From sequence record ON075799: a DNA stretch of 64,000 nt. The stretch is one strand, 5' to 3'. This DNA comes from Escherichia phage vB_EcoM_TH18. Both the position numbers and the translations under genes were made by a program. This document shows positions 38,560-56,599 of this stretch, piece after piece (the first letter of the stretch is position 1; each line of letters opens with the position of its first letter). The notes below the pieces were generated by a model. That model saw nothing but the letters and a program-made list of their open reading frames with translations, ran no database searches and had not been told where the DNA came from.

Positions 38560-38568
38560 TGAATATTT

Positions 38569-38967: not shown

Positions 38968-39038
38968 AAAGATAGCCTCTGCCGAGGATATACACCCAAC
39001 AAAGGAGGCGCTCAGGTCAGAAGAAATCTGAGCCTTAA

Positions 39039-39132
39039 TGGAGGAAGATGCCAGACTTGAACTGGCACACCCATTTCTGGGTTACTATCTCCTTAGCAGG
39101 GAGATCCCTTACCAAATTAGGGTTAATCTTCC
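39039..39132 (-). tRNA. tRNA-Ser (anticodon GCU), class II
   Basis: Acceptor GGAAGAU/AUCUUCC, anticodon arm UCUCC-CUGCUAA-GGAGA, long variable arm, T-arm GCCAG-UUCAAGU-CUGGC. Confidence 0.7.
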
Positions 39133-39153
39133 AATACCTTAGTAATTAAAAAC

Positions 39154-39243
39154 TGGTGGAGAAGGAGAGAATCGAACTCTCAAGCCGTTTTACCAGTCAG
39201 CACATTTCCAATGTGCTTTCGTCGCCAATCGATTTGCTTCTCC
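39154..39243 (-). tRNA. tRNA-Ser (anticodon GGA), class II
   Basis: Acceptor GGAGAAG/CUUCUCC, anticodon arm GCACA-UUGGAAA-UGUGC, T-arm GAGAG-UUCGAUU-CUCUC; D-arm irregular. Confidence 0.65.
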
Positions 39244-39252
39244 GTTTTAACT

Positions 39253-39328
39253 TGGCAGGGGATGGTTGATTCGAACAACCGATCACGGGGTCAAAGCCCG
39301 TTGCATTAGGCCACTATGCTAATCCCCT
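39253..39328 (-). tRNA. tRNA-Gln (anticodon UUG)
   Basis: Acceptor AGGGGAU/AUCCCCU, D-stem GCAU/AUGC, anticodon arm ACGGG-CUUUGAC-CCCGU. Confidence 0.75.
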
Positions 39329-39331
39329 TTT

Positions 39332-39409
39332 GCACGAGAGTGAGGAATAGAACCTCTTAGTCACTGGTTTTGGAGGCCAGCCTTCACCCAGTGAAGTTAC
39401 GCTACTCTC
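39332..39409 (-). tRNA. tRNA-like remnant (probable pseudo-tRNA)
   Basis: Acceptor-like GAGAGU/ACUCUC and T-arm-like GAGG-UUCUAUU-CCUC, but no canonical anticodon arm. Confidence 0.2.
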
Positions 39410-39417
39410 ATTAAAAA

Positions 39418-39975
39418 CTATTTTCGAAAAGGACTTATGAAAAATGCCAACATCACTCTCTCTCTTGAAAAAGCTCTGTCTTCAGGAACCACACTCTTCA
39501 GTTTCCAACCGACATAAATTCGCCAGTAAAATTGTTTTCCAAACAATCTAAAAGACGGGACAAACGCGAATACACCCCACGCATTGTCATTCCACATCAA
39601 CAAATAGCCTTGTTGGTTATCCTCCACATCAGAGCTTACATGGAGGTTTCCTTTCCACTTTGTCACAGATGTGATTTCACGTCCAAGTACGTGATAGGAG
39701 AAATTGTAGGCTTTATTTCTCCACAACCAAGCAACTCGTTGTAGGTAAACACCAAAACTTCCTATTTTACGGACTTCTTCCCATCTCTCTATGTGTCCTC
39801 TATCACCGTCTATAGGATTATCATATGTCTCCATCCACCTGAAAATATAAGGCAGATGCCCTGTCTTCTCATTATAGAACGGAACAACAAAAGGAGCCAG
39901 AATAACACAGAGAACCGACATAACTGGGTCAAGAGGTGCTAACAGGATCCACGATAAATATTTTAAGTATCTCAT
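39418..39975 (-). CDS. Hypothetical membrane-associated protein (185 aa) embedded in tRNA cluster
   Basis: Hydrophobic N-terminal helix; Trp-rich. Confidence 0.35.
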   Translation of the reverse strand: MRYLKYLSWILLAPLDPVMSVLCVILAPFVVPFYNEKTGHLPYIFRWMETYDNPIDGDRGHIERWEEVRKIGSFGVYLQRVAWLWRNKAYNFSYHVLGREITSVTKWKGNLHVSSDVEDNQQGYLLMWNDNAWGVFAFVPSFRLFGKQFYWRIYVGWKLKSVVPEDRAFSRERVMLAFFISPFRK

Positions 39976-40327
39976 GCAGGATCAAGCCTAGATATAATGT
40001 ACTGGTTTAAATCTGAATATGGGAAGATACTTTCAAAGATAACCTGTTTAAATCTGAAGCCGCACAAACCGAAAAGTACCTTCTGACACTCACCAAAAGA
40101 GCAATCTTTACCAACTTTTATCACAACCGTATCGGCAATCTGCACACTTTCTATCTCTTTAGATTCATGATGCCGTACTATGATTACTTTAGAAACCATC
40201 ATACTCGTCCATATTAAAGCCTTCTACTAAAGATAGTAGATGTCTAGGGTTGGACCGCAAACGCAACCCCATGGAATTTGTTACGGTCTTCAGTTGACCC
40301 AAGCGGATTTCATTGACATCTTTTAAC

Positions 40328-40402
40328 TGGAGCATCCAGAGGGTATCGAACCCTCGACTTCAGCTTGGAAGGCTGTAGTTTTCCCAATTAAACTATGGAT
40401 GC
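40328..40402 (-). tRNA. tRNA-Gly (anticodon UCC)
   Basis: Acceptor GCAUCCA/UGGAUGC, anticodon loop CUUCCAA, T-arm GAGGG-UUCGAUA-CCCUC. Confidence 0.7.
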
Positions 40403-40407
40403 ATATT

Positions 40408-40483
40408 TGGTGGGAGTGGTAGGCTCTGCCCCTACGTCCTCTCGATTATCGGTCGAGCGATCTACTAACTGATCTACACTCCC
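40408..40483 (-). tRNA. tRNA-shaped gene, anticodon GAU (Ile by anticodon), with non-canonical D-, anticodon- and T-loops
   Basis: All four stems perfectly paired, but T-loop is GGCAGAG (no UUC), D-loop AGUUAGUA lacks GG, anticodon loop CCGAUAA has C33. Confidence 0.55.
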
Positions 40484-40551
40484 AAACTGTACTGGCCCAA
40501 CAACCACGATTGGAGGGTATCGTCACACATCAAAGCCAGTACAGTTTTAGT

Positions 40552-40641
40552 TGGTGTGCCGTGATAGAGTCGAACTACCCGAGTCCCTTTCGAGACAGGA
40601 GATTTACAGTCTCCCCCGCTACCCCTACGGTCTAACGACAC
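40552..40641 (-). tRNA. tRNA-Tyr (anticodon GUA), class II
   Basis: Acceptor GUGUCGU/ACGGCAC, anticodon arm GGAGA-CUGUAAA-UCUCC, long variable arm, A73. Confidence 0.7.
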
Positions 40642-40642
40642 A

Positions 40643-40990
40643 TTAACCTTGTTTGAATTGAACAATATCCGTCGAGAACGGTTTAGCTGCCTTAATAGGT
40701 GCTTTTTCTGAGTTATCTTTTTCGAGTAACTCTTCGTTTTCCTCATCAAAGTAATCAGAAAGCATCTGCTCACCTTTCTCAATAACATAACGAGCTATAT
40801 TTTCTCTGATATTGTCTTTTGTATTCACATTCTTCATCAAATCCCTAAGAACCTGATGAGCTTCAGGAATCATTGCAATCAGATTCGTTTTTAAATCTAG
40901 GATATTTTTCTCTAACTGAATTGCATTAGATTCCTCTTTCAGAGGACGACCTTTTCCTCTTCTACGTTTTGTAAGCTGCTTAGTAGCCAT
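40643..40990 (-). CDS. Hypothetical basic/acidic protein (115 aa from MATKQL…)
   Basis: ORF trimmed to Met downstream of a consensus sigma70 promoter; longer listed ORF would overlap tRNA-Cys. Confidence 0.4.
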   Translation of the reverse strand: MATKQLTKRRRGKGRPLKEESNAIQLEKNILDLKTNLIAMIPEAHQVLRDLMKNVNTKDNIRENIARYVIEKGEQMLSDYFDEENEELLEKDNSEKAPIKAAKPFSTDIVQFKQG

Positions 40991-41009
40991 TTTAAAACCC
41001 CACTTAATG

Positions 41010-41038
41010 ATATTATCAAATAAAAACATATCTGTCAA
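41010..41038 (-). promoter_or_regulatory. Consensus sigma70-like promoter on minus strand (TTGACA, 17-nt spacer, TAATAT)
   Basis: Minus-strand reading TTGACAgatatgtttttatttgaTAATAT, about 20 nt upstream of ATG at 40990. Confidence 0.55.
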
Positions 41039-41075
41039 GTGGTATTTTAACATATTTACCAAGAAATTGAAAGTT

Positions 41076-41152
41076 TGGAGCACGGTGTCGGACTTGAACC
41101 GACATATATCTGTTTTGCAGACAGATCCGTAACCAAATTCCAGCAACCGTGC
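41076..41152 (-). tRNA. tRNA-Cys (anticodon GCA)
   Basis: Acceptor GCACGGU/ACCGUGC, anticodon arm UCUGU-CUGCAAA-ACAGA, T-arm GUCGG-UUCAAGU-CCGAC. Confidence 0.7.
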
Positions 41153-41228
41153 AATAAGTACCCCAGGTAGAGAACCTATAGAGTGGGTCTTACGAGCCGC
41201 GCTGACGATTCTCAAGTTGGGGTTAATC

Positions 41229-41305
41229 TGGTCGAGGAGACAGGATTCGAACCTGTGACCTACGGCTTAGAAGGCCGCTGCTCTATCCAACTGAGCTACA
41301 CCCCG
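41229..41305 (-). tRNA. tRNA-Arg (anticodon UCU)
   Basis: D-arm GCUC-AGUUGGAUA-GAGC, anticodon arm GCGGC-CUUCUAA-GCCGU, T-arm ACAGG-UUCGAAU-CCUGU; acceptor has one U-U mismatch. Confidence 0.7.
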
Positions 41306-41505
41306 AAAATAAGAATGCTTTATAGTGTATGGTTACTCAACCTCACTCCAACTTCCACAGTTGGTGCTCTACGAGCATGACTACGTTTGAAATCAACGTT
41401 GCGCACCGATAGCTTTCTCACGCATTGTATGCCTCATTCCCAACAAATGCTGATCAGACATTTATATCGAATAATATAAGCTAATACACTATAAAACAAA
41501 CTTGT

Positions 41506-41602
41506 GGCTGGGTGATGGAATCGAACCACCTATGTATTCAACGGCTTCCCCGTCTATTTTCAGGATTATAAATCCTCGCCCTTGCCAAAGGGCTTACCCA
41601 GC
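41506..41602 (-). tRNA. Atypical 97-nt tRNA-like gene (possible anticodon UAU) with about 30-nt extra segment
   Basis: Canonical acceptor GCUGGGU/ACCCAGC, D-arm GCCC-UUUGGCAA-GGGC, T-arm GGUGG-UUCGAUU-CCAUC; anticodon region is a 4-bp stem with loop UUUAUAA followed by 30 extra nt; CCA not encoded. Confidence 0.35.
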
Positions 41603-41604
41603 AT

Positions 41605-41679
41605 TGGTGCTCGCAGCAGGTTTCGAACCTGCAACCCCCTGCTTACAAGGCAGGTGCTCTACCGTTGAGCTATACGAGC
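41605..41679 (-). tRNA. tRNA-Thr (anticodon UGU)
   Basis: Acceptor GCUCGUA/UGCGAGC, anticodon arm CCUGC-CUUGUAA-GCAGG, T-arm GCAGG-UUCGAAA-CCUGC. Confidence 0.75.
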
Positions 41680-42044
41680 AATAAGACATTGCTTCCGATT
41701 AACAGCCTTGAGGCTTTACAGACCATATCTTGTGAGCCATAACCTGTGCCAAGGATTTCAGATGATAAACGAAATTTTATCTTTCAAGAGTCAACTTTCA
41801 AGTTTCATCTTTTACATTTAACCATTGACCTTTATTGTATGAACTTTTACTTAGTGGAAACAACAAGGCATCTTCGTGTGCCTCGCTGCATCTATGTCCT
41901 GTATTATCCTCATACATATACGATACATGGTGGGGGATATTTAACCTCCAACCCCCAGGAGGCAAGATGATGTAAACTTCGTTAATCAAAAGCAATGTTT
42001 TAAATTTCAAAACAAAGGAACGATAATGATATTATCAGAGCCTT

Positions 42045-42692
42045 TTAGAGAGAGTGCTCAATCTCAATTTCTGTCTTAGCGTTTGACTCAGACAACGCAA
42101 AATCAACGTTAGACAAGAAATCTTCAATCTCTTCTTCAAGAGAACGAATCTTAGAAGCCAGTTCAAGAGGATCCACAACCGATGGTGTGTTCATCATTCG
42201 AATAGGAGCTTCCACAGTCTTAATCTGCTCTGCATCTGGCGCTTTATCACGTTGGATATATGGCGCTCTTGCATTTTCAAGTTTATCTTCCAGAGATTTT
42301 TCTTCTTTTGCCAGAAGAAGCTGTGCAGAAGCACGCTGTGCACAAAGTTTGTTTAACAACTCTTGTTTAAAGCAAATCGTCCGTTTGCGTTCGATTGCCT
42401 CAGCAACTGTCATAGACACATTACCAATTTTGACAATTGTCTCAGCATTAGACTTAACAATTTTTGCTTTCAGTTCATCACGCACTGCCAAGAGGTCTTG
42501 CAGACTTTGATAGTCGTTGATCGCAGATTTCTTAAAATCATCAACAGAGCCGATATAACCCGGAATCTTACAATTATTCTCAGTTCCTTTTGCAATCTTA
42601 ATACAATCAAGATTGTAGATACGCTTATTGATCTTATCTTCAATTTTAGAGATAGAAGCAAGTGCACGAGTTACGGAAATCTTAGTAGACAT
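42045..42692 (-). CDS. Hypothetical protein (215 aa)
   Basis: ORF with coiled-coil-like charged regions. Confidence 0.4.
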   Translation of the reverse strand: MSTKISVTRALASISKIEDKINKRIYNLDCIKIAKGTENNCKIPGYIGSVDDFKKSAINDYQSLQDLLAVRDELKAKIVKSNAETIVKIGNVSMTVAEAIERKRTICFKQELLNKLCAQRASAQLLLAKEEKSLEDKLENARAPYIQRDKAPDAEQIKTVEAPIRMMNTPSVVDPLELASKIRSLEEEIEDFLSNVDFALSESNAKTEIEIEHSL

Positions 42693-43033
42693 GCGATCTC
42701 TCCTATGTAAATCAGCTTTGATAAAGTAACTATCCAGAAAAACAAAAACTATGTCAAGAAAAATTTTAATCTTTTACAGCATCTTTTATAGAATCACAAA
42801 GATCTTGAACAACATCAGATGTCGGTGACAAAATCATCTCGTCGGCTGCTGCTATAGCATCTGATGCTAAATCAACAAACGGAGTTGTTACCGCAGAAGT
42901 CACTTCAACAGCCGTTATTGTTACTTCGCTTGCAATCTTAAGCAAAGATCCTATCATAATCTCAACCCTCCTGAATATCCGTGATTCCCTTTATTTAACG
43001 ACGCTGGCTCACGGTGGCACTCTCGTCAATAAA

Positions 43034-43357
43034 CTATTTTTTAGTTTTCTTACCGTTTTCTACAGAAATGCTTGTTTTCTGTTTCGCTTCTCGTTCGCGC
43101 TTTGTTTTCCCAGTGCGAATACGATATGAAGCAGAAATAACTTCACCACCAATGACACGAGACACAGATTCGTAATACATTTCAGTATTACCGTCTTCAT
43201 CTTTGCGTTTTTTCAGAACTGCTACAGTTTGCGTTTTACCACCAAGGCGCACATCGTGCGGTGCAGAATGTGTCTGCGTGGATTTTGATCCAAACTGAAA
43301 AGGTTGCTTTATCGCCTCGATAGCTGACACCTTTTTAGCAGACTGTTTCTTAGCCAT
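43034..43357 (-). CDS. Hypothetical basic protein (about 107 aa from MAKKQSAKK…)
   Basis: Lys/Arg-rich small protein. Confidence 0.4.
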   Translation of the reverse strand: MAKKQSAKKVSAIEAIKQPFQFGSKSTQTHSAPHDVRLGGKTQTVAVLKKRKDEDGNTEMYYESVSRVIGGEVISASYRIRTGKTKREREAKQKTSISVENGKKTKK

Positions 43358-43409
43358 TAAGTTTTCTCCTCCGAAAACAATAAACATAGTTTATTTCGTG
43401 TGCCACATT

Positions 43410-43486
43410 TGGTGGCCCCTGCTGGACTTGAACCAGCGACCAAGCGATTATGAGTCACCTGCTCTATCCAACTGAGCTAAGGGGCC
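43410..43486 (-). tRNA. tRNA-Met (anticodon CAU; elongator-type or lysidine-modified Ile2 not distinguishable)
   Basis: Acceptor GGCCCCU/AGGGGCC with G1-C72, anticodon loop CUCAUAA, T-arm GCUGG-UUCAAGU-CCAGC. Confidence 0.75.
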
Positions 43487-46174: not shown

Positions 46175-46984
46175 TTAAAAATTTTCTGTCCAGTCGTAGT
46201 ACGCATAGATTTCGTCAACGCCACCGTTGAGAATAAATTCTTTCCCACGAGAGAAAATCCCATGCGTGACATACAAGATAACACGTTTAGCACCAGCAGC
46301 TTTCAAGGCTTGAGCTAAGTTTGTAAACGTAAACCCACCATCGCAGATATCATCAACAATCAGGCACATCTTCCCATCGACATCACCAAACACTGTTGTG
46401 CCTGTGATTGCCCCTGTTCCCACATCACGGATTTTACCAGCTTCAACCACAGATAGTTCCAAGGCATCAGCTACCTTCTGGGTCTTCTTGCGTGCACCTG
46501 CATCTGGAGCAACCAACACAAGCGATTCGTCCGTAAGCAGATCAAAATCAAACTTCATGTTCAAGAACAATTCAGTCTGAGAACGAATTTTCACGTTATC
46601 AAGCAGTGCTGCGGATACGTCACTGTGTGGGTCATCGACGATGACTTTGTGGAAACCCAGCGAGTTAATCATTGTGGCAAAGACTTTCACCGACAGAGCT
46701 TCACCAGGGTTCATAACTCGGTCTTGTCGAGCATACGGGATGTACGGCAGGTGTAAAACCTTTTCCACACCAACATCCAAATTGCCAAGACGATTGACTG
46801 CATCAACAAGCAACGCAAGACACATCACATCTTGGGAGTGCTTAATGCGAGCGAAGATATCCACAAAACCAATCGAACCCTTAGGGATATAGTGCATATC
46901 GATCTTCACCTGCTCCTCACCACCACTGAAGGTAAAATGGTCAACTGGAACATGCAACTTGTTCAAACTCAAACGAATATTCAT
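46175..46984 (-). CDS. Ribose-phosphate pyrophosphokinase-like protein (PRPP synthetase family; possible Adps-type) (269 aa)
   Basis: PRPS signatures PYIPYARQDR, VLVAPDAGARKK and PRPP-binding loop LIVDDICDGGFT. Confidence 0.75.
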   Translation of the reverse strand: MNIRLSLNKLHVPVDHFTFSGGEEQVKIDMHYIPKGSIGFVDIFARIKHSQDVMCLALLVDAVNRLGNLDVGVEKVLHLPYIPYARQDRVMNPGEALSVKVFATMINSLGFHKVIVDDPHSDVSAALLDNVKIRSQTELFLNMKFDFDLLTDESLVLVAPDAGARKKTQKVADALELSVVEAGKIRDVGTGAITGTTVFGDVDGKMCLIVDDICDGGFTFTNLAQALKAAGAKRVILYVTHGIFSRGKEFILNGGVDEIYAYYDWTENF

Positions 46985-47382
46985 GATTTATCTCCTCTAG
47001 CACGATTGACGATAATATAATTTCTTGGTTTCACGTTACCATCAGAATCCTGAAATCCTGATCTGACACGCCTGACATAACCAAAGCTCTCCATCCGAGA
47101 CAGAAATTCAGACACTTTGGTTCGTGAGTTTTCGTTCCACCCCAACAGACCACACAAGGATTGCTGTGACGGAAAGAATACCAGTTCCCCACCCAAGGGG
47201 TTCCGACTCTTGAAATACTCGTATCTCCACAACAAGCGTATCAGTCTTTGCAGATCGCTTGGTGATAACCGTTCATCAAAAACCCACTCTGTCGGCACAG
47301 CGATGTACGACCCAGCTTTCGGATTTACATGGAAACCCCCAACATTCGATTTCAAGGCAAACTCCGGTGTGTAATTCAACAC
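46981..47382 (-). CDS. Hypothetical protein (133 aa), first gene of the leftward unit
   Basis: ORF overlapping PRPS-like start by 4 nt. Confidence 0.4.
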   Translation of the reverse strand: MLNYTPEFALKSNVGGFHVNPKAGSYIAVPTEWVFDERLSPSDLQRLIRLLWRYEYFKSRNPLGGELVFFPSQQSLCGLLGWNENSRTKVSEFLSRMESFGYVRRVRSGFQDSDGNVKPRNYIIVNRARGDKS

Positions 47383-47451
47383 CGAGAATGCTACTCATAA
47401 CACCACACAATGTCAACCCCTCCCATATGTCCCCATTTCAGGGACATTATG

Positions 47452-47549
47452 ATCTAATATAATATATATTATATAATATAATTTAATATAATACTACGTA
47501 TTATATATATTATAATATATATATATAATTTATATAAAATACACTAAGT
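47452..47549. repeat. AT-only low-complexity (TA-rich) palindromic tract at the strand-switch region
   Basis: About 100 bp of only A/T with alternating TA runs and a central TACGTA palindrome. Confidence 0.8.
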
Positions 47550-47976
47550 CTTGAAGAATGTCAAGACTTGATTTTAAATATTTTTGTTGATATGATTCGA
47601 TTGAGTCGAATCGTATGGTTCGATGATTTCGAATCATAGAGTTCATGTTGTTTTGCCTGAAATCGTGAGTCGATGAGACTCTTCAGGCAATACGTGAGTG
47701 TGTAAGATGCTCACTGCGCTGATAGCTTGTGATCATCTAACCCTCATGAGCCATTCTGAGATAAACCCACATCAACAAACCCCACAGGTTTGTCTCTGTG
47801 TGTTAATCTCAATCATGGATTCGGGTTGTCACAAGTCACTATGTGACTCTGTGTGGGGATTTCGAATGTGTACCGGAGCATGGCGCACAGGACTGGTTCA
47901 TCTGTCCGTCTCAACTGGGGCGCGGCGGGGGTTAAGGTTTAGTTTTACGTTTTGTGTGGGTGTGGAGGAGAGTTTT

Positions 47977-48255
47977 ATGGCCTACGATGAAAATTCTATC
48001 CGGGTGCTGTCACCTGATGATATCAAACAACGATTTGACTGGGTACGCATCGGGGATTTGGTTCACGAATATAACTTACCTGTGGATTGGGTCAGACGTG
48101 GCTTTGAAGCGTGCTGGAGGTTAAACATCGAGCCTGATTATTTTATCAACAAGTACATCCTCAAGCAGGATGTTGAACCTGTACCTGATTTCGAGGTTGT
48201 TTTTAAAGAGATTGTTATGGAGTCTCGATTCAAGGATCAGGTATGCTCCAGGTAG
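47977..48255 (+). CDS. Early protein (92 aa from MAYDENS…)
   Basis: SD GGAGGAG 6 nt upstream; first plus-strand gene after AT-rich switch. Confidence 0.5.
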   Translation: MAYDENSIRVLSPDDIKQRFDWVRIGDLVHEYNLPVDWVRRGFEACWRLNIEPDYFINKYILKQDVEPVPDFEVVFKEIVMESRFKDQVCSR

Positions 48256-48373
48256 TCTCAAAAACGCACCTGTGAATCAGATTTGCAAATGTAGTCCACA
48301 GATAGGTAAAAACATCAACGCAAATCGATTCTCCGCTGGATCTACAGAGTAAATTTTCAATTTTCGGAGAAAA

Positions 48374-48748
48374 ATGATGAAACGTACCATGACAGACAAA
48401 GAGCGCGAAATTGCCCTCCAGTTAGCAAGAGAAAAAAGAGAGCAACAAAAGCGAGAATGGGCTGCGCTGGCAGAAGCGGGAAAAATACGCCAACATTTCG
48501 CTGACGCTAATCACTGGGCAAGGCTCCGTAGTCAATACGGGATTACATCTCCGTACAAATTAGCTCCGGCAGAAAGTGATCATGGCATGAAAATTCTTAG
48601 ACGAACGATCAGACTGACCGGAGGATTCGAGTGGTTCAATGAGTCTTTCGGTATGGACATCAAGCAGTTTGTCAGAATGAACCCTACGTGGTCTGCATAC
48701 GCTATTCAGGGGGTAATCCTTGAAGAGTGGGATGATTATCAGAATTGA
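48374..48748 (+). CDS. Early hypothetical protein (124 aa)
   Basis: SD GGAGA upstream. Confidence 0.5.
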   Translation: MMKRTMTDKEREIALQLAREKREQQKREWAALAEAGKIRQHFADANHWARLRSQYGITSPYKLAPAESDHGMKILRRTIRLTGGFEWFNESFGMDIKQFVRMNPTWSAYAIQGVILEEWDDYQN

Positions 48749-48841
48749 TTTTTGTTGTGTTTCTGGTAATCAACTGGTATGTTTATTACAGGGAGTGATA
48801 ACCACTCCCGTGTTACTTGTTTTATACAGGAGTATTAATAT

Positions 48842-49465
48842 ATGTCTTGGCCTTTTTTGATTTATCTTATTGATGTTCTTAGCACAGACGGGAAGTATGA
48901 AGGTTGGGGATTCTTGTTGTTTCTGTGTGTTATTGTATACATGCTGATGCGTATTCTTCCAAAGATCCTCGAAGAACCTAAGCTGGATATCTATCCAGGA
49001 CAAAACCTTGTTTTAGCACAAGACTGGTCACGATTTAAAGCCGGAGATGTTCTTGTTGTGAAGGATACTGCGGGTGGTGATGTTCTTCTTCGCCACGGGG
49101 AGGAATCACTTGGTTCTTGGGTGAGTAAGAGCATTTTACGAAAAGTGTGTAAACTTGATGAAAAACAAGGATATATCCCACAGCAAGATGCGATGGAAAC
49201 ACCGCGAAAGTTAACTGTGATTGCTATGGTTGTCTGTGTGATGGGTATTCTATACGCCAACTTCATGCCGCAGAAAGAGACTTCTTACAAGATGCTTGCT
49301 GCGTATGTTGGTCAAAACATTGTAGAATCTCCAAGGACTCAACAACTTGCGGATAGCACAATCAAGTATCTGGATGCCCAAATCAAGAAGTACACTCAAG
49401 AATTAGGTGATACTTCAGGAGTGGCGAGTAAGGATTCTAAGCCTGGTGAGAAGGTGAAAGAGTGA
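48842..49465 (+). CDS. Early membrane protein (207 aa)
   Basis: Two to three hydrophobic helices; SD AGGAG upstream. Confidence 0.5.
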   Translation: MSWPFLIYLIDVLSTDGKYEGWGFLLFLCVIVYMLMRILPKILEEPKLDIYPGQNLVLAQDWSRFKAGDVLVVKDTAGGDVLLRHGEESLGSWVSKSILRKVCKLDEKQGYIPQQDAMETPRKLTVIAMVVCVMGILYANFMPQKETSYKMLAAYVGQNIVESPRTQQLADSTIKYLDAQIKKYTQELGDTSGVASKDSKPGEKVKE

Positions 49466-49827
49466 TGGGAAAGTCATTTGAAACAAAACGAATAGCGTTG
49501 GACTTTGATGATACTTTCACGCTAGAGCCTGAGAGATGGTCACAATTTGTTGCTCTATTTGCAGCAAAGGATTCAGGTTGGTGTGTTAAATTTGTTACTT
49601 ATCGCTTCGATTCAGATGATAACTCTGATATCCAGTTTTGGGCTGAAAAACTAGGTATCGGAATAATTTATTGCAATGGTGTCCAGAAAGCACAAGTTTG
49701 TGCGGAACTTGGCTGGATCCCAGATGTGTGGATAGACGATTTTCCTGTTCTCATCCCTGTGAAACAACAACTACAGGGTATGCTTTTAGGGATAGAAAAT
49801 AACGAAGAAAAACATAATGTTAAGTAG
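49462..49827 (+). CDS. Early hypothetical protein (121 aa)
   Basis: Start overlaps upstream stop. Confidence 0.45.
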   Translation: MMGKSFETKRIALDFDDTFTLEPERWSQFVALFAAKDSGWCVKFVTYRFDSDDNSDIQFWAEKLGIGIIYCNGVQKAQVCAELGWIPDVWIDDFPVLIPVKQQLQGMLLGIENNEEKHNVK

Positions 49828-50064
49828 TTTAAGGGGGAGTGTTGAGAAGCATTGCGTATTACAAATTCAAATGTTGGGAGAAACTCTATGATTTGAGCTA
49901 CCTTATTTTTGGGAATCTCCCTGTCACTGAAGACATTAAACACAAAATGTATCTTTCATACATGAAATACCGTCTCCACGAAAGAAAGAGTGGTTGATGA
50001 GAATGTTATAATGCCCTGTAGAGAGTGTCTACAGGGCTTTAATGCTTAATCACAGGACTTACCA

Positions 50065-50895
50065 ATGACAAGTATTTTACACACGACAGGTATTTTACCA
50101 CACTATCAGAAGGAATATTCTTTCCCTGATTTATCTGGGGATATGTTGCAAATATACGACAAAGTGCAAGGCGAAGTGTCGGAGCTACAATTTAGTTCAG
50201 ACCCTGATGATGAGCAAGAGTTTGATAAACAGATTTGTCGTGTAGAAAACGAGCTTATAGAGCTACAATCATTAGCCAAATCAACAGATATCGAAGACTT
50301 AAGGCGACACGTTGAGAATCTTGAAAATTTAGTGTTCGGGCTTTCGCAAGCTATTATAAACATTGGTGAAATTGCTAAAATTGCCTCTGACAAGTTGCCA
50401 GACAACACAGAAGATATTGAAGAAGCGTTGCAGAATATCTGCTATGAAGGAAGTTCTGCTCTCGGTTGTGAATGTAATCTAGGAAATGCTCTTGAAGAGC
50501 GTGGGTGGAACCTGTTCCAAAAAACTTTTGTTTATCGTGTTATTGGTGGTGAGTTTCCTCGGCTCATACAACTTAATGCCCTTTTTGGAAACAGCCAGGG
50601 TGATAATATTGCATTAGGTATTGATGGCTGGTTCTGTTTAAGAGGTAAAGAATTAGCATTTTGTTGTGGCGATGATGTGTTAATTCTCAATGCTTATAAA
50701 CCAGGTGTTGAAATAACAACAAAATTAAATGGTAAGTCCACTAAATTTCACACCAGAGAGTTGGAAGATATTTTCATGGACATATTTGATCCTACAGAAG
50801 ACGAAATTCTTATGTATGAAATGACCAGTGGAAAAAGATATGATATTTTGTCGTGGAGAAATATTTTTGGCAAGAAGAGAAAGCCTGTAGCGTGA
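50065..50895 (+). CDS. Early hypothetical protein (276 aa)
   Basis: Long ORF followed by hairpin ccctgtga…tcacaggg. Confidence 0.5.
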   Translation: MTSILHTTGILPHYQKEYSFPDLSGDMLQIYDKVQGEVSELQFSSDPDDEQEFDKQICRVENELIELQSLAKSTDIEDLRRHVENLENLVFGLSQAIINIGEIAKIASDKLPDNTEDIEEALQNICYEGSSALGCECNLGNALEERGWNLFQKTFVYRVIGGEFPRLIQLNALFGNSQGDNIALGIDGWFCLRGKELAFCCGDDVLILNAYKPGVEITTKLNGKSTKFHTRELEDIFMDIFDPTEDEILMYEMTSGKRYDILSWRNIFGKKRKPVA

Positions 50896-51158
50896 TATTT
50901 TATCACTGATATTTGTTTTCCCTGTGATATTTTTGTCACAGGGAAAGTTTCAATAGTGGATATTTTCTTGATACTTTAAATTCCTACCAGAAATTTAAAT
51001 TCTGTAAATTTAGAAAACTATTACTTATAGGCGTTTCGACACAATTTTGTTATGAAAGCCTTGTTTTTATATAAAAACCTGTTTTAGCATGGGTGGTAGG
51101 ATCACACTCCATACTACCTTTATTCCTACAGATGAGCATCTCCATGTTCGAAAACTCG

Positions 51159-51340
51159 GTTCTCGATCGAAAATTCATTTTCCAGATCGTATTTGCTCCT
51201 TACGGAGAAAATTTTTTAGGGCTACAAGTTTCAGTTCTCGATCGGTTTTTCGATTTCAAAATCGTATTTGTTTTTTCTTGCGAAATTTTTCGCACGCTCA
51301 GTTCTCGATCGAGTTTTCAAAATCGAAATCGTATTTGCTC
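51159..51340. repeat. Three tandem direct repeats (about 67-75 bp), each containing GTTCTCGATCG and AATCGTATTTG
   Basis: Repeat units begin at 51159, 51234 and 51301; each includes a GATC site; no ORF. Confidence 0.8.
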
Positions 51341-51742
51341 TATAGTGCGAAAAAATTTTTATGGGTATCATAATTCTATCACACACTTAAACGCAAAGCA
51401 ACATAAAAATTTTTGTTGAATGATAATCATTCTCATTTGCAGAATGACAGGTAGGATCAGTGTCTTATCCTCCCCCGTTGACCATCGTCGCCGTAGTTTG
51501 AAGTTTATAGCCGTTCTCGGCTTATCTCTTTGTTAGAGATAGATTACCATAATTGATAAAGAAAGCAAGCGTTAATTGTAATCTTTACGTTTCTTTACAA
51601 ATTTATTTTAGACAAACTACCGGCGATCGACCTTCCAACCAGCGCCCTGGTATGTTAGCCCCGCCTTTACGCCGTGGGGATGGCGTTGCCTCTTCTGTAT
51701 GTTAGGCATTATAAGCCCAATCCCTGGGCTTGTCAAACATTT

Positions 51743-52006
51743 TTATTTATTTTCTTGCCAGGTTAGGACACCTAACCAGAAATGGCAATCACCTTTCGCC
51801 CATTGTGGTATATTGCTTTCTTTCCCACCTTCCCGCGCCCAGGAATAACCGCCCGTGTAACTTTGTAATTGATAACTATCCTCGACCTTATAATCTGACA
51901 GGTTGAGAACTGTTTCTACCTTTAAGCCTGTTGCGCTCGCTACCTGGTGGATAGTTCCCCCTTGCCAGCCTAACGCGTGCATAAGGTGCATTGTGGTAGT
52001 GGTCAT
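51743..52006 (-). CDS. Hypothetical small protein (87 aa), lone minus-strand gene in early region
   Basis: ORF divergent from 52186 gene. Confidence 0.4.
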   Translation of the reverse strand: MTTTTMHLMHALGWQGGTIHQVASATGLKVETVLNLSDYKVEDSYQLQSYTGGYSWAREGGKESNIPQWAKGDCHFWLGVLTWQENK

Positions 52007-52102
52007 TTTTTCTATTCCTCTGTTAGTTGGTTGTCAGAATTGTATCTATAACCAACCAGGTTAGCAAGATAAATAAAAGAGAAAAATTTTTTAAAAATAC
52101 TA

Positions 52103-52131
52103 TTGACAGCTAGATAGTATAGGTCTACTAT
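52103..52131 (+). promoter_or_regulatory. Sigma70-like promoter (TTGACA, 17 nt, TACTAT)
   Basis: Consensus hexamers upstream of gene at 52186. Confidence 0.5.
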
Positions 52132-52185
52132 GTGCACATCAAGGCGATACACCGCCACCAACCAACCTAAAAGGGGTAAATCAAT

Positions 52186-52809
52186 ATGAAAACCATTGTT
52201 AACGCTGAGAATGTATCTTTCGATAAGTTGAACGACGCACAAAAAGAAAAAGCCATTGATCTTATTCGTGAGCGTGAAAGAGAAAGCGCCGATAATTTCT
52301 TTGCGGATAGTGTCATTGAAGACTATAAGAATGACATTTTACCAGAGTACGGGATCGATGACGCGGTTATCTATTGGTCAGGATTCTGGTCGCAAGGCGA
52401 CGGCGCATCTATCAGCACTGATCGCGTGGATATTGAAAAATTTTTAAGAAAAGTTAAATCTTTAACAAAATTTAGAGGTATCCGCAAACTATTTGATCTT
52501 GGTGAATATAGTCAGTTATACGCAAGCATTGAGCGGGATAATTACAGCCGCTACCATCATGAAAATACTGTTTCCGGTTACGTTGAAACTATGTATTGTG
52601 GTGATTTAACGGCAAAACAGGAAGATCTAGCCAATCAGCTTGAAAACTTGTTAACTGAAACGATCCGCGATCTGTCTTGTAAACTTTACAGAGATTTAGA
52701 ATCAGCCTATGATGACCAGTTTACAGATGAAGCCATCACCGAATCAATTGAAGCCAATGATTATCGTTTTGATATTGATGAAGATGGAGAAGTTTACGCT
52801 ATCGCTTAA
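52186..52809 (+). CDS. Early hypothetical protein (207 aa)
   Basis: SD AAAGGGGT upstream. Confidence 0.5.
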   Translation: MKTIVNAENVSFDKLNDAQKEKAIDLIRERERESADNFFADSVIEDYKNDILPEYGIDDAVIYWSGFWSQGDGASISTDRVDIEKFLRKVKSLTKFRGIRKLFDLGEYSQLYASIERDNYSRYHHENTVSGYVETMYCGDLTAKQEDLANQLENLLTETIRDLSCKLYRDLESAYDDQFTDEAITESIEANDYRFDIDEDGEVYAIA

Positions 52810-52896
52810 AAGTACTTGCATTCAGTTTTAAAATAGTATTATACTACTAAAACAGGACGGGGAACTGCTCCCCGTCACATTCAGGAGATCATCAAA

Positions 52897-53109
52897 ATGG
52901 CTAATATTCGCACCTTGTTAAAAAATGCAAAGCAAGTTTTATTTTCCGATCACGATTATTTCAATAAAGACATTACAGGCGTAAAGAATATCAAAGACGT
53001 AAAAAATGTCATGGGTATCTATTGCAATATGAAGCGAGTAGGCACATTTGGCAATAAAGTATTATATCAGGCAGGTGACTATAATTTTACTTTGACAATT
53101 ATTTCATAA
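52897..53109 (+). CDS. Early small protein (70 aa)
   Basis: SD AGGAGA upstream; preceded by hairpin gacggggaactgctccccgtc. Confidence 0.45.
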   Translation: MANIRTLLKNAKQVLFSDHDYFNKDITGVKNIKDVKNVMGIYCNMKRVGTFGNKVLYQAGDYNFTLTIIS

Positions 53110-53174
53110 AACCACTTGCAAAGTTATATAGCTCTGTTATACTACCAACATTGACAAACGAGAGGTAAATAAAA

Positions 53175-53531
53175 ATGGCAATCCAGGCAATCATGTTAGA
53201 ACTTACAGATTTCCGTAATACTGTAAAAAATTTATCTAAGAAACAGGTTGACAATATCATCAACGGATACCGTAGCAAGATTAAAGATCTTCCGCTTAAA
53301 CGCGATCAACATGCGGCTAATATGATGTTTAATGCTATGATTAAAAAGATGATCCAATGTGATCTTTCTCTGGCTTATGAATACGCTGGCGATCTCTTTG
53401 CAACGTATAACAAGCCCGTGCTAGGTATGAGCACCACGGAAGAATTACACGCCTTAAATCTGCGGCAAGATGCTTGGGATAATATGCACCGCGTTATGGT
53501 GTGGGTAGAAAGCGGTAAAATTTATCAATAA
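53175..53531 (+). CDS. Early hypothetical protein (118 aa)
   Basis: SD GAGAGGT upstream; promoter-like TTGCAA…TATACT upstream. Confidence 0.5.
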   Translation: MAIQAIMLELTDFRNTVKNLSKKQVDNIINGYRSKIKDLPLKRDQHAANMMFNAMIKKMIQCDLSLAYEYAGDLFATYNKPVLGMSTTEELHALNLRQDAWDNMHRVMVWVESGKIYQ

Positions 53532-53537
53532 AAGTAG

Positions 53538-53574
53538 TTGACTTTTAGTTATGCCGTGATAGAATACACGGCAT
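53538..53574 (+). promoter_or_regulatory. Promoter (TTGACT, 16-17 nt, TAGAAT) with -10 inside 8-bp inverted repeat ATGCCGTG/CACGGCAT
   Basis: Consensus -35 and -10 with the -10 hexamer in the loop of a perfect palindrome; duplicated at 57772-57808. Confidence 0.5.
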
Positions 53575-53607
53575 AGATAAGAGAAACTACTTATCAGAGT
53601 TTAAAAG

Positions 53608-53826
53608 ATGAAAAATATTACGGGTAAAACCGAACTATTAAAGGCGCTTTCTGTTGGTGAGTCAGCTTTATGGGTATGTGAAAAAGATCGCCTACCATCG
53701 CGAGAGATGGCCTTATTTAAGGCTTTATCTCTGAAGCTGAAAATTAAATTATCCCAAAAATTAGCGGTTGTTGCCGCACCGAGGGAAACCGCTTTCAGTG
53801 TTGTAATGGTTAAACGGTTGGAGTAG
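53608..53826 (+). CDS. Early small protein (72 aa)
   Basis: ORF downstream of palindromic promoter. Confidence 0.4.
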   Translation: MKNITGKTELLKALSVGESALWVCEKDRLPSREMALFKALSLKLKIKLSQKLAVVAAPRETAFSVVMVKRLE

Positions 53827-53912
53827 AAAAAAATTAAAAATTATCTTGACAAGCAAAACAGCAAAAATTAAACTTACACACAGTTAAACAAACAATATTG
53901 ACGAGGTAAATC

Positions 53913-54284
53913 ATGAAACAGTTAACCGCTTCCCAAAAAACAATGATCCGTGAGTATGTTTTAAATTCTCTTTCTTTTGATCTTGAATCTGATCTCAAAC
54001 AAGATCAGATTCAAGAATTAAAAAACCGCTTTGAATCTGAATACTGGTACGATAGCAACAAGAAACGCTATCAAAATGATAAAGTACAAGGCCTTAAAAA
54101 CTGGCTACAAGGCTTGCCAAGCGGTGTTGATATTGATTTCACTTATTACGATATTGAGCAACGCCTTAAGGATTTTGGAATCATCACCGACACGACCAGA
54201 GAAAGCACCATTGAAAAATATGTTTCTGAGTGGTGGGATCTAGTAGCGCCGTTTTATGTGGGTCTGATCGTAAACTTAAAATAA
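53913..54284 (+). CDS. Early hypothetical protein (123 aa)
   Basis: SD GAGGT upstream; TTGACA…TAAACT promoter-like upstream. Confidence 0.5.
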   Translation: MKQLTASQKTMIREYVLNSLSFDLESDLKQDQIQELKNRFESEYWYDSNKKRYQNDKVQGLKNWLQGLPSGVDIDFTYYDIEQRLKDFGIITDTTRESTIEKYVSEWWDLVAPFYVGLIVNLK

Positions 54285-54361
54285 TTCTTGAAAACTGTTT
54301 TAAATTGGCTTAAATTAAAGGGGTGAATTTAATCACCCCCAACATGAAAGAGGTTAATCAA

Positions 54362-54673
54362 ATGAATACTTATTTTTCTACTCGTTCACTTGCACGCATT
54401 GCAGCGAAAGAAACAGGCGGTAAAGTTTTAGACAATGGCAAAGATTCACCGATCGGTAAACGTTGGCAGGTTATCCCCGGTTATGTTGTCGAAGCCTCCC
54501 AGGATACAGCAAAACAACGCGCGGAGATGGAAAATAAACCAGTAGTTACCTTATCCATCGGCAAGCGTAGCAATGTAGCGAATAAAGCCCGTAAGGCGCT
54601 TTATTACGCCATCAATTACGCAAGAAATAATAAAACTGTACCAGTTTATCATAAGCGTTCATTTAAGAAATAA
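54362..54673 (+). CDS. Early hypothetical basic protein (103 aa from MNTYFS…)
   Basis: SD AAAGAGGT upstream of this Met; upstream hairpin ggggtgaatttaatcaccccc. Confidence 0.45.
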   Translation: MNTYFSTRSLARIAAKETGGKVLDNGKDSPIGKRWQVIPGYVVEASQDTAKQRAEMENKPVVTLSIGKRSNVANKARKALYYAINYARNNKTVPVYHKRSFKK

Positions 54674-54743
54674 TTTTTAATTAGATAAAAAAGCGCCCTA
54701 GGAAATGGGCGCTAAACAAAAACACTTAAAGAGGTAAATTATT

Positions 54744-55094
54744 ATGACTAATATTGCAGAAGCTTTTCAAAAAGCTATCGAAAATAAAAACGCTGAGTTG
54801 TCTTTAACTTCTCTGGATTTTACGGATGTGTACGGTAACACTTATTTTGTTTATGAGCTTGCTTTTACTTGTCCTGAGTTAAAAACATGGGAAACGTTGC
54901 ATAAATCTCGCGAGCTGCAATATGGTTATGGCGATCATGTTCTTCATGTTGCAATGAAAGACCTTTCAACTATCGCCGAGGTAAAATCTGAGGCCGCATA
55001 TATTACCCGTTGGGCGCATGACAACGGCTTAAAAATTAGTGTCAACAAGCGCACCAATTGCCGGAAAAAAGATTTAAAACAGTTTATCGCTTGA
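54744..55094 (+). CDS. Early hypothetical protein (116 aa)
   Basis: SD AAAGAGGTAAAT upstream. Confidence 0.5.
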
Positions 55095-55119
55095 TCCTGT
55101 TAATCATCTTGGTGGTTGT

Positions 55120-55470
55120 ATGATTCAGTTTTATATAATCATCGCGGCGCTTGCAATTTACTTAGGATTGCACAAAAAAGTATTCAGGTTAATTCTCTGG
55201 TTTTATTACGAGTACAGGATCAGAATGGTTTTCCATTATATTGAATACTCTTTCCACGGTGAGAGATACCACACAAGGAGATCCGGCCCATTAAATGATC
55301 TTGAGGGAAACGGTTTAATCTGTGAGGTTAAAAAGCGTGGCGGGAAAATTCTTTACCACAAAGAGGGCACTTTTGATTATATTGATGAGGTGATTAATTT
55401 TAGGCAACAAGCCGTAAAAGATCACGCAAGCAAAATAATCAACGGCAGCTATAAACGCAAAGCGGGGTAA
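55120..55470 (+). CDS. Early membrane-anchored protein (116 aa)
   Basis: N-terminal hydrophobic helix. Confidence 0.4.
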   Translation: MIQFYIIIAALAIYLGLHKKVFRLILWFYYEYRIRMVFHYIEYSFHGERYHTRRSGPLNDLEGNGLICEVKKRGGKILYHKEGTFDYIDEVINFRQQAVKDHASKIINGSYKRKAG

Positions 55471-55471
55471 T

Positions 55472-55654
55472 ATGCGGAATTTTGAAAAAATTGTTAAAGC
55501 TAATCGCCTGGAATACGGGGAAACAGACGAAAAACGGGAACGGGTAGGCAAACGCCACAAGCCTAAAAAGGTTCCTAAATTGTGGTGCCCTGATAAATAC
55601 GACCACAAATTAAAACAACGCATCGCTGAAAAACAGCGATTAAATGCAAGATAA
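55472..55654 (+). CDS. Early small basic protein (60 aa)
   Basis: Lys/Arg-rich; followed by terminator. Confidence 0.4.
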   Translation: MRNFEKIVKANRLEYGETDEKRERVGKRHKPKKVPKLWCPDKYDHKLKQRIAEKQRLNAR

Positions 55655-55660
55655 CAGACA

Positions 55661-55686
55661 AGGCCGGAACTATCCGGCCTTTTTAG
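55661..55686 (+). terminator. Intrinsic terminator (aaggccggaactatccggccttttt)
   Basis: GC hairpin plus T-run. Confidence 0.65.
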
Positions 55687-55873
55687 CACCTAGTAGCGCC
55701 TGTAACGATTAAAAAGGCCAACGGTGGCATGATGCACCACAAAATAAAATAGCTCGTTAGAGAGTGTTTTAGAGGCCTTAAAATCGATCCGAAAAATATC
55801 TATAAAAATGCTTGCAATGCTTTCCCGCTATCGTTATAGTGTTCCCAACAAGCAAGCAAACGAGGTAACGGCA

Positions 55874-56011
55874 ATGATTGAGATTCTTAAAAATCCTATT
55901 TTGTGTGGTATGGTTGTTTCTGTGTCACTTCCGATCGTGCTGTTAGTCGTTAGCGAAATAGATGATTTTATTTTCAATAAAAGACTTGCCAACAAGTCAA
56001 AAACAAATTAA
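55874..56011 (+). CDS. Small hydrophobic peptide (45 aa)
   Basis: SD GAGGT upstream; single predicted transmembrane helix; promoter-like TTGCAA…TATAGT upstream. Confidence 0.35.
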   Translation: MIEILKNPILCGMVVSVSLPIVLLVVSEIDDFIFNKRLANKSKTN

Positions 56012-56048
56012 TATAGTACCAACATACTAACTAGCGAGGTGATTTAAT

Positions 56049-56267
56049 ATGTTTGGTTTTATTGTTCTATCTTGTTCTCTTTCTGTTACTGCTGCAAAGG
56101 TAGAATGTAACTACACTGTAAAAGAGACTTTTAATGATGAAAAGTCTTGCAATGTATACGAAAATAATTATAAACTAGGAGACGGGGAGCAGTTCGGGAT
56201 CTGTGATGAATTAAAGGACGGTATCAAGAAAGGCGATAAGCGCCCGATCTTGGTCCTGAAAAAATAA
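56049..56267 (+). CDS. Early small secreted protein (72 aa)
   Basis: N-terminal signal-peptide-like segment; SD GAGGTGA upstream. Confidence 0.45.
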   Translation: MFGFIVLSCSLSVTAAKVECNYTVKETFNDEKSCNVYENNYKLGDGEQFGICDELKDGIKKGDKRPILVLKK

Positions 56268-56308
56268 TTTTTCTAATCATGTTGATCAATTTTTAAGAGG
56301 TGAATAAA

Positions 56309-56596: not shown

Positions 56597-56599
56597 CGC

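Follow-up and report, generated by a model that had tools for sequence, protein, structure and literature searches.

In the replication origin of phage lambda, four dyad-symmetric iterons bound by the O protein are followed by an AT-rich region and then by a palindrome, all situated inside the O gene, and the O protein combines a winged-helix initiator DNA-binding domain with a C-terminal domain that recruits P-DnaB. In the primary origin of T7 and the T4 origins oriF and oriG, an AT-rich unwinding element lies downstream of a promoter and an R-loop serves as primer; these origins make use of phage-specific or middle-mode promoters and have no iteron-binding initiator. The PR/OR units of the lambdoid phages carry tandem dyad operators that overlap the promoter, and oriS of herpes simplex virus is an AT-centred palindromic origin located between divergent promoters and duplicated in inverted repeats. 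The locus described here, an AT-rich and TTCGA-rich non-coding element starting at position 47452 of the 64,000-nucleotide stretch in record ON075799 (the window, by which the whole of the analysed DNA is meant), can be compared with each of these systems. It can also be compared with the origins of the RepA_N initiators, the iterons of which are semi-palindromic direct repeats with inverted arms converging on a poly-A tract (PMC7145576).

The element is interpreted here, with about an even chance of being right, as belonging to a non-coding control cassette of Avunavirus, ~550 bp long, of which it would form the right-hand two thirds, the left part having been cut off by a join between scaffolds; the cassette would unite a promoter/operator with a replication origin and occur as an inverted pair. 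Within this interpretation, the sequence moderately supports two early sigma-70 promoters with a tandem operator, and it is plausible that the AT-rich DNA beside these promoters is the unwinding element of a probable iteron origin of the RepA_N-like kind. Counted from a small winged helix-turn-helix (wHTH) gene, the cassette would comprise two dyads, GATC sites with GTTAGT repeats, a hypervariable AT tract, a back-to-back -35 palindrome, the rightward promoter P(right) with its TTCGA palindromes and a leader of ~260 nt. Host RNA polymerase would start early transcription at P(right), as its consensus match suggests, and a dimeric sequence-specific DNA-binding protein on both palindromes would shut this promoter, a role to which their position, shared half-sites and invariance point. 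The AT tract would act as the unwinding element of an iteron-type origin, with a RepA_N/DnaD-like protein (resembling the DnaD N-terminal domain, NTD) binding the adjoining dyads, and the leftward promoter P(left), which points into the AT tract, may help to open it. The origin step draws on the protein fold, the repeat architecture and the instability of the duplex. The features of the locus are as follows.

46981-47382, minus strand: small wHTH gene (phrog_8453, 133 aa), first gene of the minus-strand block
47388-47416, minus strand: predicted sigma-70 promoter of the wHTH gene, TTGACA-17-TAGCAT (10/12 in the consensus scan), outside the repeated cassette
47427-47447, no strand: dyad 1, ATGTCCC-CATTTCA-GGGACAT (DNA fold z = -3.1); its last base is the last base of Scaffold1
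47447-47448, no strand: artificial scaffold join, end of OK136180.1 against start of OK136181.1, as identity to both record ends shows; ~106 bp absent
47448-47545, no strand: AT-rich tract, the part kept in Scaffold2, with short degenerate units and a central TACGTA; candidate DNA-unwinding element and upstream region of both predicted promoters
47536-47564, minus strand: predicted sigma-70 promoter P(left), TTGACA-17-TATTTT (10/12 in the consensus scan), directed into the AT tract and toward the dyads and the wHTH gene
47546-47569, no strand: hairpin or palindrome of 9-10 bp, AAGTCTTGA-AGAATG-TCAAGACTT (DNA fold -6.9 kcal/mol, z = -3.2)
47568-47596, plus strand: predicted sigma-70 promoter P(right), TTGATT-17-TATGAT (9/12 in the consensus scan plus a TG extended -10), start expected near 47603
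47594-47612 and 47617-47635, no strand: tandem 19-bp palindromic operator candidates with centres 23 bp apart, covering -10 to ~+33 of P(right)
47603-47976, plus strand: structured leader with four strong hairpins (whole z = -4.5; single hairpins z = -2.8 to -5.9)
47977-48255, plus strand: first early gene (92 aa, phrog_18265; ribosome-binding site GGAGGAG at 47965-47971), at the head of a block of small early genes

Scaffold join and probable inverted-repeat cassette

The window is Escherichia phage 18-1-2 (Avunavirus, Vequintavirinae), two scaffolds of which have been joined head to tail between 47447 and 47448. By direct comparison, positions 1-47447 are the last 47,447 nt of OK136180.1 (18-1-2 Scaffold1) and positions 47448-64000 the first 16,553 nt of OK136181.1 (18-1-2 Scaffold2), with 0 mismatches in both cases; the two records belong to assembly GCA_020795355.1. 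The region matches Escherichia phage Av-05 at 95% and scaffolds of 18-1-2, 19-1-2 and 24-2-1 at 100%, all of these being Avunavirus in the subfamily Vequintavirinae. Av-05 carries 106 extra bp precisely at the junction, where the placement of the gap is unambiguous, and the ~106-bp stretch beyond 47447 is also present in 24-2-1 (on a scaffold ending with the same gene), in 19-1-2 and in two ENA metagenome scaffolds. Besides a second dyad (ATGTCCCC-GTTT-TGGGGACA), it contains two GTTAGT/ACTAAC repeats, three GATC sites and a further copy of AATATAATACTACGTATTATA, and in the sister assemblies it adds further AT-rich DNA. A 30-mer spanning the junction of the window gave 0 matches in IMG/VR, consistent with an artificial join.

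The join precedes the first base of the AT/TTCGA element by 4 nt. Because two scaffolds have been concatenated, the left edge of the element and its adjacency to the minus-strand genes are artefactual, and the left boundary which the initial annotation placed at the AT tract is merely that of the join, with ~106 bp absent relative to Av-05, 24-2-1 and the two ENA scaffolds. Everything that crosses the junction, including the apparent strand switch and the minimum of GC skew, hangs on an arbitrary order and orientation of scaffolds. The cumulative GC-skew minimum at 47-48 kb of the window was not used as evidence for an origin, since skew tracks gene orientation and the scaffold order is arbitrary. 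The switch between late and early genes, at which the element had been placed, holds for the window and for Av-05 but not for a 137.9-kb metagenome scaffold or for the synteny of other genera, where a different block opposes the wHTH gene; the terms late and early are roughly right, except that the first 10 kb of the minus-strand block are not late.

The scaffold ends indicate that the ~550-bp cassette occurs twice in the real genome, in inverted orientation and flanking a 54-kb early/replication segment, the window holding one collapsed copy. Both ends of 24-2-1 Scaffold1_1 consist of an identical 107 nt, inverted (the dyad/GTTAGT element, X), and both ends of 24-2-1 Scaffold2_1 of another identical 107 nt, also inverted (the leader end, R). 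In 18-1-2, Scaffold1 begins with inverted X (1-99) and Scaffold2 ends with inverted R, the segment at positions 47742-47864 of the window recurring inverted at OK136181.1 54312-54435 (124 nt). On this sequence evidence the pattern is what an assembly graph shows when two unique arcs, of 79 kb and 54 kb, are parted by two inverted copies of one repeat; the repeat runs from about 47421 to 47864 and, with the absent 106 bp, totals ~550 bp. The AT tract, hairpin, TTCGA sites and R are joined to either flank in independent contigs: the 92-aa early gene lies downstream of the cassette in 18-1-2 and Av-05, and a block headed by a 149-aa gene (then metallophosphoesterase, RNA ligase and SIR2) in ENA scaffold_96 (137,934 bp), OVXI01000030 and JZOQ01000111. 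Six Logan contigs with a homologue of the early gene (91% identical) all start at one position inside the leader. Since the wHTH gene is divergent from the metallophosphoesterase/RNA-ligase block in PVP-SE1, KB57 and Hena1, the ENA arrangement is taken to be ancestral and the adjacency in the window arbitrary; in the other genera the region is single-copy. Av-05 cannot settle the question of the flanks because it was assembled from 36-nt reads, and its sequence suggests that this genome, the reference for the genus, has been collapsed or wrongly joined where the repeat lies.

In OVXI01000030.1 the last 260 nt hold the promoter, TTCGA sites and leader, which follow the end of a gene and a strong rho-independent terminator (CCGGATGAAAACTT..AAGTTTTCATCCGG TTTGTTTATT). 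This copy has a short AT tract and no dyads beside the cassette, and its left flank had no match in phage records. The Av-05 record NC_025830.1 (120.9 kb) lacks the last 1.4 kb of 18-1-2 Scaffold2, and at 102,760-102,870, by the end of its tail-protein gene, similarity to 18-1-2 ceases inside dyad 1.

Predicted promoters, TTCGA palindromes and leader

The hairpin which had been seen beside the AT tract is borne out by its folding energy and is invariant in 6 independent sequences. It contains the minus-strand -35 box (TTGACA) of P(left) and adjoins the plus-strand -35 box of P(right), so that the two -35 boxes stand back to back. P(right) is invariant in the 6 sequences save for one spacer base, and the consensus scan gave no other good plus-strand promoter before the first six genes (47977-50895). 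A back-to-back design is likewise found in PVP-SE1 (GTCAA-CTC-TTGAC) and KB57 (GTCAA-CAC-TTGAC), with good -10 boxes on both sides, and equivalent promoters toward the wHTH gene can be read by eye in PVP-SE1 (TTGACA-17-CATACT) and KB57 (TTGACA-17-GATAAT). As consensus matches, both P(right) and P(left) have the hexamers at 16-18 bp spacing, upstream of genes, that characterise sigma-70 promoters.

The TTCGA region consists of two 23-bp direct repeats (47591-47613 and 47614-47636) and folds with z = -4.2. Each repeat contains a 7+5+7 palindrome, GATTCGA-TTGAG-TCGAATC at 47594-47612 (palindrome 1) and GGTTCGA-TGATT-TCGAATC at 47617-47635 (palindrome 2), with the common half-site G(A/G)TTCGA. The TTCGA palindromes reported by the initial annotation are thus real; they are two adjacent units and not one 47-bp near-palindrome, only 10 of the 47 bases matching themselves in register. 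Exact TTCGA-N5-TCGAA matches are found at just two sites in the 64 kb, both within 47594-47635. Both palindromes are 100% conserved in 18-1-2, Av-05, JZOQ, OVXI and the two ENA scaffolds, the flanking genes being 93-95% identical, and the stretch from the promoter-proximal AT tract to the palindromes, hairpin and promoter included, shows few single-base differences in an alignment of six copies. With a start expected near 47603, palindrome 1 would straddle the -10 box and the start site and palindrome 2 would cover ~+15 to +33, so that both are dyad sites overlapping the core promoter or its start. The left arm of palindrome 1 sits upstream of the predicted start and this palindrome cannot form an RNA hairpin; together with the shared half-site and the placement before two operons, this favours a dimeric sequence-specific protein at tandem operators over RNA stems. 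The proposal of a divergent promoter/operator hub therefore gains predictive support from the back-to-back -35 boxes, the palindromes over P(right) and the position of the cassette before two different operons.

Searches for the TTCGA cassette found Av-05 only in IMG/VR, nothing among GTDB genomes and one match, OVXI, among metagenomes. Matches to the half-site GGTTCGAATC at 37.8-41.6 kb were rejected as further operators, being the T-arms of tRNAs, and GGTTCGAATCC T-arms explain every other TTCGA half-site match in the tRNA-cluster part of the window. This cluster (37815-43486, minus strand) comprises 16 genes according to ARAGORN, 12 of which are confirmed by Rfam, with one more at 40411-40483.

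The leader as far as 47864 (~260 nt) is part of the repeated cassette, while 47865-47976 is particular to the early-gene operon. Rfam gave no match at E<=1 in 47300-48100 and, in a scan of the whole window at gathering thresholds, only tRNAs at 37.9-43.5 kb; ARAGORN found no tRNA at the cassette. A structured or tRNA-like RNA family, brought to mind by the resemblance of TTCGAAT to a T-loop, was rejected for want of a match in either search.

The plus strand to the right carries dozens of small genes and many strong sigma-70 promoters, as is typical of an early region. Leftward on the minus strand, the 133-aa wHTH gene is followed by genes for PRPP synthetase and NAMPT, then by small genes and 16 tRNAs, and then by the terminase and structural genes. 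The terminase large subunit (~31.8-35.5 kb) is annotated in three pieces with an HNH homing endonuclease gene between them, which may reflect an intron, an intein or a fragmented annotation. Within the early block, an 850-bp non-coding gap (50896-51742) contains three direct repeats of ~71 nt (51147-51217, 51222-51292 and 51289-51359), each with TTCTCGATCG, ATCGTATTTG, a small hairpin and a T/A run, and a perfect consensus promoter (TTGACA-17-TATAAT; minus strand, 51736-51708) points into it. The motif ATCGTAT noted with these repeats also lies between the two TTCGA palindromes. The repeats could represent an RNA array or another cluster of binding sites.

Winged-helix gene, dyads and AT-rich tract

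The wHTH gene probably starts at a TTG at 47355, after CCGGAG, as its alignment with the homologues of related phages suggests. In Av-05 and the ENA scaffolds the annotation begins it at a GTG corresponding to 47406, which gives 141 aa; in the phage of the window the frame from 47406 is broken by a TAG, and the predicted -10 box ends at 47388. The TTGACA of the wHTH promoter is found at the same position in PVP-SE1, KB57, Hena1 and W70 and is unique to the wHTH-side copy of the cassette. Secondary PHROG matches of the family are exclusively replication initiators or DnaD-like loaders, namely phrog_270 (6/8 members), phrog_186 (5/8, best E 1.5e-6), phrog_428, phrog_8102 and phrog_678, and a profile search recovered 49 homologues, all of them single-domain small phage proteins. 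The protein models as a RepA_N/DnaD-NTD-like initiator DNA-binding domain: an AlphaFold2 model built on the alignment of 49 sequences (pLDDT 84.8; a single-sequence model, with pLDDT 49, was unusable) has the DnaD-NTD-like winged helix, N-terminal beta-hairpin and long helix of the initiator N-terminal fold. Sequence and profile searches of the PDB gave nothing significant and NCBIfam nothing useful, and a single-sequence word-index search returned one homologue.

Dyad 1, the only dyad kept in the window (47427-47447), opens a pair of semi-palindromic direct repeats that resemble iterons, its partner having been lost at the scaffold gap. The second dyad follows it in Av-05, 24-2-1, 19-1-2 and the ENA scaffolds, the spacing being ~26 bp in Av-05, 24-2-1 and the ENA scaffolds, and a third half-site is present at the ribosome-binding site in PVP-SE1, KB57 and Hena1. 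The arms vary by genus with the dyad kept (TATTCC..GGGAATA in PVP-SE1 and KB57, TATGCC..GGGCATA in W70). The GTTAGTATTGT block (ATAAGTTAGTTTAA-TGAT-AGTTAGTATTGT) and the first dyad are conserved at the nucleotide level across five genera, the wHTH proteins of which are just 35-64% identical. Both the dyads here (GTGTCCCC-AAAAC-GGGGACAT) and that of PVP-SE1 (TATTCC-TTTTT-GGGAATA) fit the published description of RepA_N iterons (PMC7145576).

The AT tract adjoins these dyads. Positions 47444-47543 are 93% A+T; two uninterrupted stretches of A and T within them, of 39 bp (47455-47493) and 43 bp (47499-47541), exceed all others in the window, where the third in rank measures 19 bp. The initial annotation described about 100 bp of A and T only at 47452-47549; this interval contains 7 G/C (C47454, C47494, C47497, G47498, C47542, C47544 and G47548), so that the extreme composition stands and the exclusiveness does not. 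By nearest-neighbour free energy the tract is the weakest duplex in the 64 kb (z = 6.6 for 100 bp). The palindromy ascribed to the tract was not upheld and was rejected as a meaningful feature: its fold (z = -0.95) is equalled in 34 of 200 shuffles, which is the level given by composition. TRF finds degenerate periods of 2, 5, 9 and 29. Length and unit content are hypervariable (94 bp here, ~130 in Av-05, ~190 in ENA scaffold_96 and ~45-90 in OVXI), except at the promoter-proximal end, where six copies show few single-base differences.

Only one GATC site lies in or by the AT tract (47451), with another in the leader (47731) and three more in the extra 106 bp of Av-05. Upstream of the wHTH gene, PVP-SE1, KB57, Hena1 and W70 have 3-7 AAGATC(T/A)T sites together with T-rich stretches, for example GATCTTATGTTTTATTGTTTT, reminiscent of oriC 13-mers; compared by eye, GATCTTATGTTTT agrees with the GATC-initiated 13-mer GATCTnTTnTTTT at 10 of 11 positions, the motif being of low complexity within AT-rich DNA. 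These four relatives encode a Dam-type methylase of their own. In Avunavirus, TA-rich repeats replace most of the AAGATC(T/A)T and T-rich sequence.

An initiator-like gene, iteron-like dyads, the least stable DNA and an inward promoter form, as far as the sequence indicates, a classical origin layout. The suggestion of an unwinding element and possible origin has thus been strengthened, with a neighbouring gene that models as an initiator domain and predicted RepA_N-style repeats between that gene and the AT tract.

Several observations weigh against the combined promoter and origin cassette. There are just two dyads, as against the usual three or more iterons; DnaA boxes (TTWTNCACA) number 9 in the window, which is chance level, with none in 47383-47976. 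The wHTH protein has no Pfam RepA_N (PF06970) match (E<=1 for the protein of the window, E<=0.1 for 8 family members), Foldseek support for its initiator fold is weak, and a C-terminal recruitment domain is lacking. Dyads just upstream of the wHTH -35 box suit plain autoregulation equally well, and the OVXI copy, with its shorter AT tract and no adjoining dyads, indicates that a promoter cassette may stand alone, with no origin-like half. The promoters are predictions from consensus matching, P(right) scoring just 9/12, the TTCGA palindromes are lacking in relatives outside Avunavirus, and the evidence for the inverted-repeat model is the topology of assemblies and not sequencing reads. In the Vequintavirinae phage Bas54, the intergenic region at the strand switch yielded no insertions in a transposon screen (10.1101/2025.11.20.689424), which fits an essential cis-element; that region cannot yet be taken for a homologue of this locus, the wHTH family being absent from rV5-like phages.

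Alternative explanations and comparison with known systems

It is possible, though on balance doubtful, that the locus serves transcription only, as a divergent early promoter/operator hub in which the AT tract is an UP element, curved DNA, a nucleoid-protein target or a slippage-prone spacer and the wHTH protein an autoregulator or early regulator. The predicted promoters and operator-like palindromes would suffice for this, many sigma-70 early promoters lie nearby, the length of the AT tract varies freely, and the OVXI copy is predicted to be a promoter cassette placed after a terminator and devoid of dyads. The dyads stop 7-10 bp short of the wHTH -35 box, on its upstream side, and, with the half-site at the ribosome-binding site in PVP-SE1, KB57 and Hena1, form a typical autoregulation layout, while the wHTH protein has weak Pfam matches to Crp, TrmB, ArsR and MarR HTH domains. 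Its best structural and PHROG matches are, however, replication initiators and not regulators, the nucleotide conservation of the GTTAGT/dyad block across genera exceeds what promoters need, and 94-190 bp of AT-rich DNA is far longer than an UP element. An action at the RNA level, with the hairpin at 47546-47569 as a bidirectional intrinsic terminator that insulates the two blocks and the TTCGA palindromes as 5' stem-loops that stabilise or regulate the leader, is improbable. The terminator scan does flag the hairpin on both strands, with T-rich tails, one copy of the cassette follows the last gene of a late operon, the leader is strongly structured throughout, and RNA from 47603 would form a 10-bp stem from palindrome 2 (-16.2 kcal/mol, z = -3.4). 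Intrinsic terminators close transcription units with a G+C-rich stem and a T run behind it, whereas just 3 of the 9-10 pairs here are G-C, one copy of the hairpin lies between divergent gene starts, and in OVXI it comes after a much better terminator. RNA stems would also not need the identical half-site of the two palindromes, the left arm of palindrome 1 could not pair in a transcript starting at the predicted site, and Rfam offers no match.

The topology of the cassette suggests two further readings. The inverted pair might mainly serve to invert the 54-kb segment, giving flip-flop isomers with the palindromes as crossover or resolvase sites; such a recombination substrate would accord with the inverted-repeat arrangement and with flanks that differ by assembly, Av-05 and 18-1-2 being joined one way and ENA scaffold_96, JZOQ and OVXI the other. 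It is nevertheless quite improbable, as assemblers are expected to produce alternative joins at any collapsed repeat and this arrangement of promoter and dyads occurs just once in the genomes of other genera; no recombinase was noted beside the repeats, although no systematic search for one was made. A physical genome end or packaging site, or a mere assembly artefact devoid of biology, is highly improbable. At least 12 contigs or scaffolds break within 47447-47867 (18-1-2, 19-1-2, 24-2-1, JZOQ, JZNW, six Logan contigs and ENA scaffold_183), but the break points vary (47447, 47486, 47754, 47814, 47827 and others) and fall at repeat boundaries, all four scaffold ends of 24-2-1 are exactly 107 nt of repeat, and the cassette is contiguous in Av-05, ENA scaffold_96 and OVXI. 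Related phages of the genus Certrevirus package by headful and have circularly permuted genomes (PMC7344957), which is why the contig breaks are not taken for physical ends. A cos, pac or terminal-repeat terminus was rejected on the grounds that the assemblies share no fixed end and the breaks are 107-nt repeat overhangs.

The preferred reading, a promoter/operator and origin cassette present as an inverted pair, would provide a candidate origin, initiator and early operator for the Vequintavirinae, whose members are widely isolated with phage therapy and biocontrol in view and for which no origin or early regulatory circuit has been mapped. In a broader and rather unlikely form, the non-rV5 Vequintavirinae would possess an iteron origin with a stand-alone RepA_N-NTD-like protein, and the Avunaviruses would carry the cassette twice and inverted, with two origins and possibly two isomers. 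If true, the RepA_N-NTD-like family would extend beyond the Firmicutes plasmids and the Vibrio PLE satellite, so far almost its only characterised settings, and the possible genome isomers would be comparable to those of herpesvirus or chloroplast genomes. More practically, windows drawn from multi-scaffold assemblies can hide silent joins, and the public short-read assemblies of this phage group that were examined all break in, collapse or arbitrarily join the repeat, so that the gene order near it is not to be trusted.

Among the known systems, the RepA_N iteron origins, exemplified by RepA of the S. aureus plasmids pSK41 and pTZ2162 and by RepA and the ori of the V. cholerae PLE, share with this locus semi-palindromic repeats with arms converging on an A/T run and candidate sites that adjoin both the initiator gene and AT-rich DNA. 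The wHTH protein differs from their initiators in being stand-alone (~125-133 aa), with no C-terminal domain and no Pfam RepA_N match; the locus has two dyads, its host is a large lytic enterobacterial phage, and binding and origin activity are predicted here. The lambda origin is resembled in the order of dyads, AT tract and palindrome and in the winged-helix candidate initiator, one member of the wHTH family also weakly matching an O-like PHROG, whereas the repeats here are intergenic and two in number. In common with the T7 and T4 origins, a predicted promoter, P(left), points directly into the least stable DNA; the candidate iterons and initiator set the locus apart, and the likeness is one of sequence layout. 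As in the lambdoid PR/OR units, two 19-bp palindromes with a shared half-site lie over the -10 box and start of a sigma-70 promoter, with one unit before two operons, but here the units point inward around a 54-kb segment and, to present knowledge, the phage has a strictly lytic lifestyle, as have its relatives (PMC11370258). The AT-rich core between divergent promoters, duplicated as an inverted repeat that bounds a segment possible in two orientations, recalls oriS by analogy only, the proteins, scale and host domain being unrelated. The cassette thus adds to known kinds of element; it is of use chiefly in offering a candidate origin and initiator that can be tested in the Vequintavirinae, and in the caution it gives about the public assemblies of this phage group.

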